From an uncultured Dehalococcoidia bacterium (lineage in GTDB: Bacteria; Chloroflexota; Dehalococcoidia; Lucifugimonadales; UBA3495), in assembly GCA_964587795.1 (NCBI GenBank), contig CAZPMU010000011.1, forward strand, positions 2,162 to 66,161: a stretch of 64,000 bases of DNA, written 5' to 3'. Position numbers and translations under genes: made by a program. The notes beneath the pieces were generated by a model. The model had not been told where the DNA came from, ran no database searches, and saw only the letters and a program-made list of their open reading frames with translations. Shown here piece after piece: positions 16,724 to 17,323 of this stretch; position 1 is the first letter of the stretch; every line of letters starts with the position of its first letter.

Positions 16724-17015
16724 GCCTGTCCCTGTGGTTATGGCGCCAACCTGCAGTCGCGCTCCCATAGCACTCTCATCGCCGGAACCCAGCTTCGCCC
16801 TCTGCCAATGCCCGGGGTTTCCTGACAAGAGGGATTCAGGCAGGGCCGACGTGTGCTAATTATGGGAAAGTCAGTCGTTCCCGCGCCGGCGCGTCCGCCT
16901 CCGGCGAGAAGGCGGGAAGGCGGGAGCCTCGAGCGGGGCGAGTGATTTCGCAGCTCTCATTTGACCTACGGGAATCCCGCCAAGTGGGAGAATGCGTCTG
17001 CCCTGGGGACTCAGG

Positions 17016-17222
17016 CAGGGCAATCGCGTTTTAATCTTCGCTGCTTACTTAAGGCGGAAAGCAATGTCGCCCTGAGCTTGCCGAAAGGCCTAAAATCCTT
17101 CACCTCAGCCCGGTTTGGGGTCCGAAAGTCGGCTTGTCGGTGGGAGTTTAGATTCTTCACTGCGTTCAGAATGACAGTATTGGCGGCTCAAGGTTACAGT
17201 TCGTTAAAATGCGTTTGCCCTG
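17016..17222. mobile_element. MITE-like non-autonomous element, copy A (207 bp)
   Basis: Terminal inverted repeats cagggcaatcgcgttttaa / ttaaaatgcgtttgccctg, flanked by the direct 10-mer gggactcagg (17006-17015 and 17223-17232). It is homologous along its length to 31584-31788. Confidence 0.6.
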
Positions 17223-17323
17223 GGGACTCAGGAATGTGGCGGGCAAACTACGCGGAAATGCGCTACAATTGACCCGTTCTCCATCAAACCTCTTTCTTCC
17301 CGCTCGAGATTTAACCAATTAAC

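Follow-up and report, generated by a model that had tools for sequence, protein, structure and literature searches.

Probable ISAs1-type miniature inverted-repeat transposable elements with internal hairpin modules in an uncultured Dehalococcoidia genome

Bacterial MITEs (miniature inverted-repeat transposable elements) of type I share their terminal inverted repeats with a resident insertion sequence (IS); examples are Nezha in cyanobacteria and the Correia elements in Neisseria. Among autonomous elements, the ISAs1 family is characterized by a CAGGG-starting inverted repeat of 14-22 bp and by a direct repeat of 10 bp (PMC11946415). One member, ISArsp11, is 1306 bp long and has the inverted repeat CAGGGCTGATGC... 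and a direct repeat of 10 bp (PMC6305408). Dispersed hairpins are also known as the sites of Ssn proteins, small GIY-YIG nucleases that cut single-stranded DNA beside NTS/SRM hairpins (Chenal et al. 2025, PMC11893778). These hairpins, with the NTS sequence CGTCATTCCCGCGMAVGCGGGAATCYRG, flank the nuclease's own gene in an NTS-ssnA-NTS layout (PMC11893778). Here we describe a family of short dispersed repeats, represented by two copies (A and B), in a 64,000-nt stretch of DNA from an uncultured Dehalococcoidia bacterium. The whole stretch, hereafter the window, corresponds to C11:2162-66161 (contig CAZPMU010000011.1) of a 3.08-Mb metagenome bin that comprises 98 contigs and is 97% complete. We consider it highly probable (roughly 0.9) that the repeats are an ISAs1-family MITE of type I, a DNA transposon that is itself non-autonomous and has ends matching those of autonomous insertion sequences.

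Copy A (207 bp, 17016-17222, forward strand) and copy B (205 bp, 31584-31788, forward strand) belong to the same family, denoted family 1. An earlier note on this DNA had described the two as colinear homologs at these coordinates, and blastn bore this out, aligning them over their full length at 74% identity. Both copies start with CAGGGCAATCGCG; the inverse complement at the right end, also claimed in the earlier note, is present with 2 mismatches in copy A and 1 in copy B. The terminal inverted repeats of the family are ~19 bp long (CAGGGCAATCGCGTYTTAA). In copy A, the left repeat (CAGGGCAATCGCGTTTTAA, 17016-17034, forward) is identical at 18 of 19 positions to the ends of 1225-bp ISAs1 elements found in congeners, and the right repeat (17204-17222, reverse) begins, read inward, with 14 nt (CAGGGCAAACGCAT) that are identical to a second IS end type, denoted type 2. 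Each copy is flanked by a perfect 10-bp duplication and, as had been reported, the 10-mer differs between the copies, being GGGACTCAGG for copy A (17006-17015 and 17223-17232) and GTACGGAAAC for copy B (31574-31583 and 31789-31798). With up to 2 mismatches allowed, the window contains the end 13-mer 12 times, compared with a mean of 2.9 in shuffled sequences, and 0 of 100 shuffles reached 12.

We built a profile from 21 full copies of family 1 and searched the whole genome with nhmmer. This search uncovered 97 loci spread over many contigs: 34 near-full copies (at least 180 of 206 model positions covered), 41 partial copies, and 22 short ones, many of which seem to contain little beyond the hairpin module described below. 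Thirty-one near-full copies had both flanks present and were scored for duplications, with the same comparison at a shifted flank as the control. A 10-bp duplication was perfect in 7 of them, matched at 9 or more of 10 positions in 14, and at 8 or more in 17, compared with a control maximum of 6 of 10. Two further copies of the 31 had 9-bp duplications, and no matches were found among the 31 at lengths of 8, 11, or 12 bp. A strong consensus was absent from the flanking 10-mers across copies, so the 10-mers are not part of the element. Counting copies and collecting their flanks, the first check proposed for the element, thus gave the outcome expected of target-site duplication.

The family was found in most genomes of the genus. 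Within our genome it includes a young subfamily consisting of copy A and three full relatives at 94-97% identity, along with ~9 copy-A-like end fragments (94-100% identity) located on contig ends. We infer from the 94-100% identity of this subfamily that transposition was recent. In total, 18 of the 97 loci were located at contig ends, and 18 of the 196 contig ends touched the family, which indicates that its copies contribute to assembly breakage.

A de novo scan for elements with CAGGGC...GCCCTG ends and a duplication matching at 9 or more of 10 positions recovered 19 elements, compared with 1 in the control. The sizes fell at 119, 133-135, 146, 158-165, and 205-216 bp and the ends differed slightly, indicating that several sister families are present in the genome. 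A 119-bp MITE (2789-2907, forward) is the third element in the window; it has inverted repeats of the same type, a perfect duplication of its own (GGGAAAAGCC, 2779-2788 and 2908-2917), and a core formed by a single near-perfect hairpin (ATGTCATGCTGAGCCCTTCGGCAAGCTCAGGATGACAT), and as a whole it is unique in the genome. The sequence at 2787-2806, previously taken for a solo end, turned out to be the left end of this complete element; the solo ends were the one part of the earlier reading in need of correction. For an end-like 13-mer at 36155-36167, neither a partner end nor a duplication was found; its first 93 bp matched no repeat family, and its flank was unique. A ~60-bp dispersed repeat with ~35 genome copies (window 36233-36296) adjoins this 13-mer and is unrelated to it; a ~30-bp dispersed repeat (CCACGAATGGGCACGAATAGTCAC, window 2683-2717), which most genomes of the genus carry in many copies, is unrelated to the MITE. 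Taken together, the elements are 119-216 bp long (MITEs being below ~600 bp), non-coding, and multi-copy, and they have inverted repeats, duplications of fixed length and variable sequence, and, in the case of copy A, an empty site.

We then searched 20 relatives, comprising 12 other genomes of the same genus and 8 from other families of the order, for ISAs1 transposases with the model NF033564 (family cut-off 70 bits). Matches above the cut-off were found in 7 of the 12 congeners, with several copies in G012 and G004, and in 0 of the 8 genomes from other families. One of the elements in G004 (L011, positions 1393-2617) is 1225 bp long and has the ends CAGGGCAATCGCGTCTTAA and TTAAGACGCGATTGCCCTG, to which the left end of copy B is identical at 19 of 19 positions. 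Its single open reading frame (ORF) scored 431.5 bits against NF033564. In G004 and G012, autonomous elements with the same ends were identified at L011, L013, L176-L178, and L180. Autonomous partners measure 1225-1336 bp in the congeners and have one ORF. Insertion sequences of type 2 (L012, 1237 bp; L014, 1287 bp) have ends (CAGGGCAAACGCATTCTAA) that match those of a second MITE family, denoted family 2, and a 1237-bp IS matching the family-2 MITE is present in congener G010. Perfect 10-bp duplications flanked 4 of 7 type-1 copies (a further 1 of 7 had a 9-bp duplication) and 2 of 2 type-2 copies. The autonomous partner anticipated in the earlier note was thus found, in that congener elements sharing these inverted repeats code for a transposase of the ISAs1 family and generate duplications of 10 bp. 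The MITEs themselves have the CAGGG-starting inverted repeats and 10-bp direct repeats of the ISAs1 family, in which direct repeats span 8-10 bp and are typically 10 bp long. This suggests that a congener-type ISAs1 transposase moved these copies.

In G012, two oppositely oriented 1225-bp IS copies (L013 and L175) are located ~90 kb apart and have no duplications. The right flank of one is the reverse complement of the right flank of the other (GGAGACATAT and ATATGTCTCC), a pattern expected after inversion by recombination between the two ISs.

In the mechanism that we propose, an ISAs1-family DDE transposase acting in trans would bind the ~19-bp inverted repeats and would insert the element at a 10-bp staggered cut, and gap repair would then produce the 10-bp direct duplication. 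We analyzed the alignment of 21 copies and found that inverted-repeat pairs (columns 1-18 with 191-208) were kept across the copies. The two ends were also found to covary, with column pair 15/194 being C-G in 8 copies and T-A in 7. Coordinated change of both ends is expected if one protein must fit both.

The surroundings of copy A provide a record of two successive insertions. A complete sister MITE of family 2 (165 bp, 16841-17005, forward), with the ends CAGGGCCGACGTGT and, on the right and read inward, CAGGGCAGACGCAT, abuts copy A. Its core is a hairpin resembling the Ssn type (GTCGTTCCCGCG...GGCGGGA). The family-2 repeat was found via the joined flanks of copy A and has ~10 long and ~7 short copies in the genome. 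The local order is 10-mer, family-2 element, 10-mer, copy A, 10-mer. The middle 10-mer (17006-17015) is both the right duplication of the family-2 element and the left duplication of copy A, and the left duplication of the family-2 element (GGGATTCAGG, 16831-16840) matches it at 9 of 10 positions. This order indicates that copy A is inserted precisely into the right-hand duplication of an older family-2 element. Insertion into the 10-bp duplication of a resident would generate both the tandem and the 25-bp direct repeat that had been pointed out at this locus. The repeat is real, being made up of the final 15 nt of either element followed by the 10-bp target that they share. The accompanying suggestion of nested or tandem insertion proved correct, with the complete family-2 element and copy A sharing one 10-bp target. 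Copy A deviates from its own subfamily at 2 positions, and both are identical to the end type of its neighbor (chance ~1 in 9). Gene conversion from the neighbor may be the source of the deviant right end of copy A.

We further surveyed 17 genomes of the genus for TGCCCTG-N-CAGGGCA junctions, with N from 2 to 20 and the tally made by hand. In total, 58 junctions were found, of which 12 had N=10, 6 had N=9, 4 had N=11, and the other lengths had ~2 each; the reversed-pattern control gave 13 in all. In several junctions the 10-bp spacer was the outer duplication of one neighbor. Examples of tandems include family 2 with family 1 in the window, a MITE with an IS in G012, and two opposite family-1 copies in G003. 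At least three tandems join unlike or oppositely oriented partners, and unequal crossing-over therefore cannot account for all of them. This suggests that a new insertion frequently goes precisely into the 10-bp duplication next to an element already in place, and the choice of target would then be guided by the resident end.

The locus of copy A also has an empty counterpart. Within an ABC transporter operon, copy A lies just past the terminator, with the binding-protein gene on one side and the permease genes on the other. In both G013 and G015, which are congeners, the target is present once, between the transporter-gene terminator and the right flank, the order being the stop codon, the same terminator hairpin, ~20-27 bp with a single ...ATCAGG target, and then GCGGGCAAAC...GCGCTACAAT. 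The search for an empty site, another of the checks proposed for the element, therefore succeeded in two congeners. The intrinsic terminator after the solute-binding-protein gene (16688-16716) is kept in congeners, and the MITEs occupy the interval from it to a conserved ...GCGCTACAAT motif that lies upstream of the permease genes. This motif is a possible -10 box. From the terminator to the family-2 element, ~110 bp (window 16717-16826) have no counterpart in G013 or G015 and may represent a further, unclassified insertion.

The position of copy A inside this operon, right after the terminator, could also suggest that the repeats are a structured non-coding RNA or regulatory element (an mRNA stabilizer, an attenuator, or an outward promoter) maintained by intergenic selection, with the transposon ends being secondary. 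A weak outward promoter-like site at 17171-17200, some compensatory pairs, and a strong predicted fold are consistent with such a role. We regard it as very unlikely: the insertion sites are at unrelated genes, the element is absent from the same operon in the congeners, and no Rfam match was found for it even at E-values up to 10. At the gathering threshold, Rfam identified only one tRNA in the whole window, located elsewhere. The fold itself is the foldback expected of a MITE. Single-stranded copy A is predicted to fold back with z ~ -3.5 as DNA or RNA and on either strand. In the alignment, columns 57-62 pair with 150-155 and 68-84 with 128-144. These columns correspond to a left internal module (ATGTCGCCCTGAGCTTGCCGAAAGGCC, 17064-17090, forward), a degenerate hairpin arm, and a right internal module (17147-17177, reverse; reverse complement CTGTCATTCTGAACGCAGTGAAGAATCTAAA), also a hairpin arm, that pair with each other. 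Under the ISAs1-type MITE reading, the interior is a long predicted foldback formed by an inverted pair of hairpin modules, and it is unrelated to the IS.

An ORF of 103 aa (16961-17272, forward) runs open across copy A, and on a protein-coding reading the elements would encode a small protein with the motif ...RFFTAFRMTV... in its translation. We could locate the same frame in 23 copies; it was open in just 5 of them and contained 1-4 stops in the other 18. Pfam and NCBIfam searches of the ORF gave no match, and the peptide motif is one reading of a hairpin arm that is present in both orientations. The protein-coding reading is refuted, in agreement with the earlier judgment that the ORF is an artefact, and we give it next to no weight.

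Some observations weigh against the ISAs1-type MITE reading. An intact ISAs1 transposase gene was not found in the 97%-complete, 98-contig assembly of the strain itself, which contains only relics. One relic, found by blastn/tblastn with the congener IS, is a decayed 150-bp left end with 74% identity (C13:5778-5930), and the other, found with NF033564, is an ISAs1 transposase remnant with 2 stops (C15:48294-48617). A search of the same genome for paired end-like 13-mers 0.3-6 kb apart yielded only chance pairs around ordinary genes. With only relics in the assembly, current mobility in the strain is unproven. Multi-copy insertion sequences are often lost from metagenome bins. The strain's own IS would either have been lost after a recent mobilization or be absent from the bin. 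Apart from ~20 bp at either end, the MITE showed no similarity to the IS, and its origin from the IS through internal deletion is therefore unsupported. In addition, about one third of the copies have no recognizable duplication, which fits old age but is not proof of it, and for the 119-bp element the empty site could be placed only approximately, the congeners being too diverged in their intergenic DNA.

We next consider the internal modules, which are the basis of the remaining alternative. Conservation within the family is highest in the right module (TTTAGATTCTTCACTSCGTTCAGAATGACAG), where it exceeds that of the inverted repeats. The 22-mer TTCACTSCGTTCAGAATGACAG has exact matches in at least 118 contigs (L019-L136) from species of many phyla, including Bacteroidota, Chloroflexota, Bacillota, Cyanobacteriota, Acidobacteriota, Verrucomicrobiota, and candidate-phyla-radiation groups. 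In these other settings it usually constitutes one of the two arms of a hairpin whose loop varies, and no bounding ISAs1 ends were found in the loci sampled. Within the class, a 15-mer was present in 1-5 copies in 20 of 200 other genomes, compared with 41 copies here, which indicates that it was the MITE that amplified the motif in the genus. The genus-specific amplification of the hairpin is accounted for by its being a passenger inside the MITE.

The right module resembles the recognition hairpins of Ssn nucleases. Its reverse complement (CTGTCATTCTGAACGCAGTGAAGAATCT) has the NTS frame GTCATTC-N12-GAATC, and the genome contains, outside the window, two small GIY-YIG genes (C16:20283-20504 and C45:4656-4877), each located between inverted NTS-like hairpins (CGTCATTCCGGCGAAAGCCGGAATCC and CGTCGTTCCCGCGAAGGCGGGAACCTC) as in NTS-ssnA-NTS. 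The C16 copy of the gene has an in-frame TAG. The second of these two hairpin types has 28 genome copies, some of them inside MITEs. The hairpin flanking one of the GIY-YIG genes recurs exactly in a 146-bp MITE (C4:149027-149172), and the family-2 MITE carries a version of this hairpin with an enlarged loop. Among the 118 foreign loci with the 22-mer, 5 had a GIY-YIG gene nearby, each within 42-546 bp. The published SRM motif (HGTCWYN(0-2)YYVSBRHN(0-5)WNVSBRGN(0-2)RNCYNB) is matched by the hairpins flanking the C16 gene, but it has no match on either strand in copies A and B, the 119-bp element, or the family-2 element. In the literature searched, the hairpin sequence and its peptide readings led only to primers and unrelated acronyms.

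These features raise the alternative that the repeats belong with the repetitive extragenic palindromes (REP), the bacterial interspersed mosaic elements (BIME), or the NTS/SRM hairpins, and that they are spread by a REP-associated tyrosine transposase (RAYT) of the Y1 type or by an Ssn-type GIY-YIG nuclease, the CAGGG ends being incidental. Such an origin would account for the hairpin arm, rather than the inverted repeats, being most conserved, for its occurrence in many phyla apart from ISAs1 ends, for the layout of the two Ssn-like genes, and for the GIY-YIG genes near the 22-mer in foreign genomes. It is nevertheless improbable in our view, at only a few percent. Hairpin systems of this kind do not make variable 10-bp duplications or 19-bp inverted repeats, whereas both are present here and agree with the ISAs1 IS. 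A Y1 transposase (PF01797) was not found in the genome, the modules do not match the published SRM motif, and at each of the 3 genus sites inspected, inverted repeats enclosed the core.

The preferred reading as an ISAs1-type MITE leaves room for a connection between the two systems. It is conceivable, although we hold it to be doubtful, that ISAs1-type MITEs carry Ssn/NTS recognition hairpins which were captured from an unrelated selfish or defence system and amplified ~tenfold, that a partner protein still constrains the arm, and that the transposase targets the duplications of resident copies. If so, the conservation of the 22-nt arm across more than 10 phyla, above that of the inverted repeats, would reflect a conserved protein partner acting on MITEs. 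The modules differ from Ssn targets in being located inside a DDE-type transposon rather than free-standing. The notion of an Ssn-type hairpin cargo would thus serve as a lead and not as a classification.

The family explains spurious ORFs such as 16961-17272 as well as many breaks in the assembly, and it accounts for strain-level intergenic differences in an uncultured bacterium, in which lineage-specific insertions can serve as markers of recent history. The MITE families are paired one-to-one with at least two ISAs1 IS end types, in a family whose transposition has been little studied. Two leads arise from the analysis, namely insertion exactly 10 bp from a resident end and the carriage of hairpins related to Ssn targets. 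Neither alters the classification, according to which the elements are an ordinary kind of bacterial mobile DNA.

We compared the elements with the described systems that they most resemble. We found no description of ISAs1-type MITEs or of SAR202 MITEs in a limited library of the literature, which is not proof of their absence. With the ISAs1 family (ISAs1 of Aeromonas salmonicida, H-repeat/ISEc1, and ISArsp11) they share CAGGG inverted repeats and the 10-bp direct repeat; they differ from these insertion sequences in being 119-216 bp long, in having no transposase gene and an unrelated interior, and in having no intact partner in the assembly. REP and BIME are similarly dispersed intergenic palindromes that may sit between the genes of an operon, but REP have no terminal inverted repeats or target duplications, and this genome has no Y1 transposase. 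The elements also resemble type I MITEs, which are small, non-coding, and multi-copy, form a foldback, have inverted repeats and fixed-length duplications, and are mostly intergenic; as with such MITEs, spurious ORFs are created and short-read assemblies are broken. Nezha and the Correia elements differ in the transposase family and in the length of the duplication. What sets the elements described here apart from other type I MITEs is the coexistence, within a single genome, of several sister families that correspond to at least two types of IS end.

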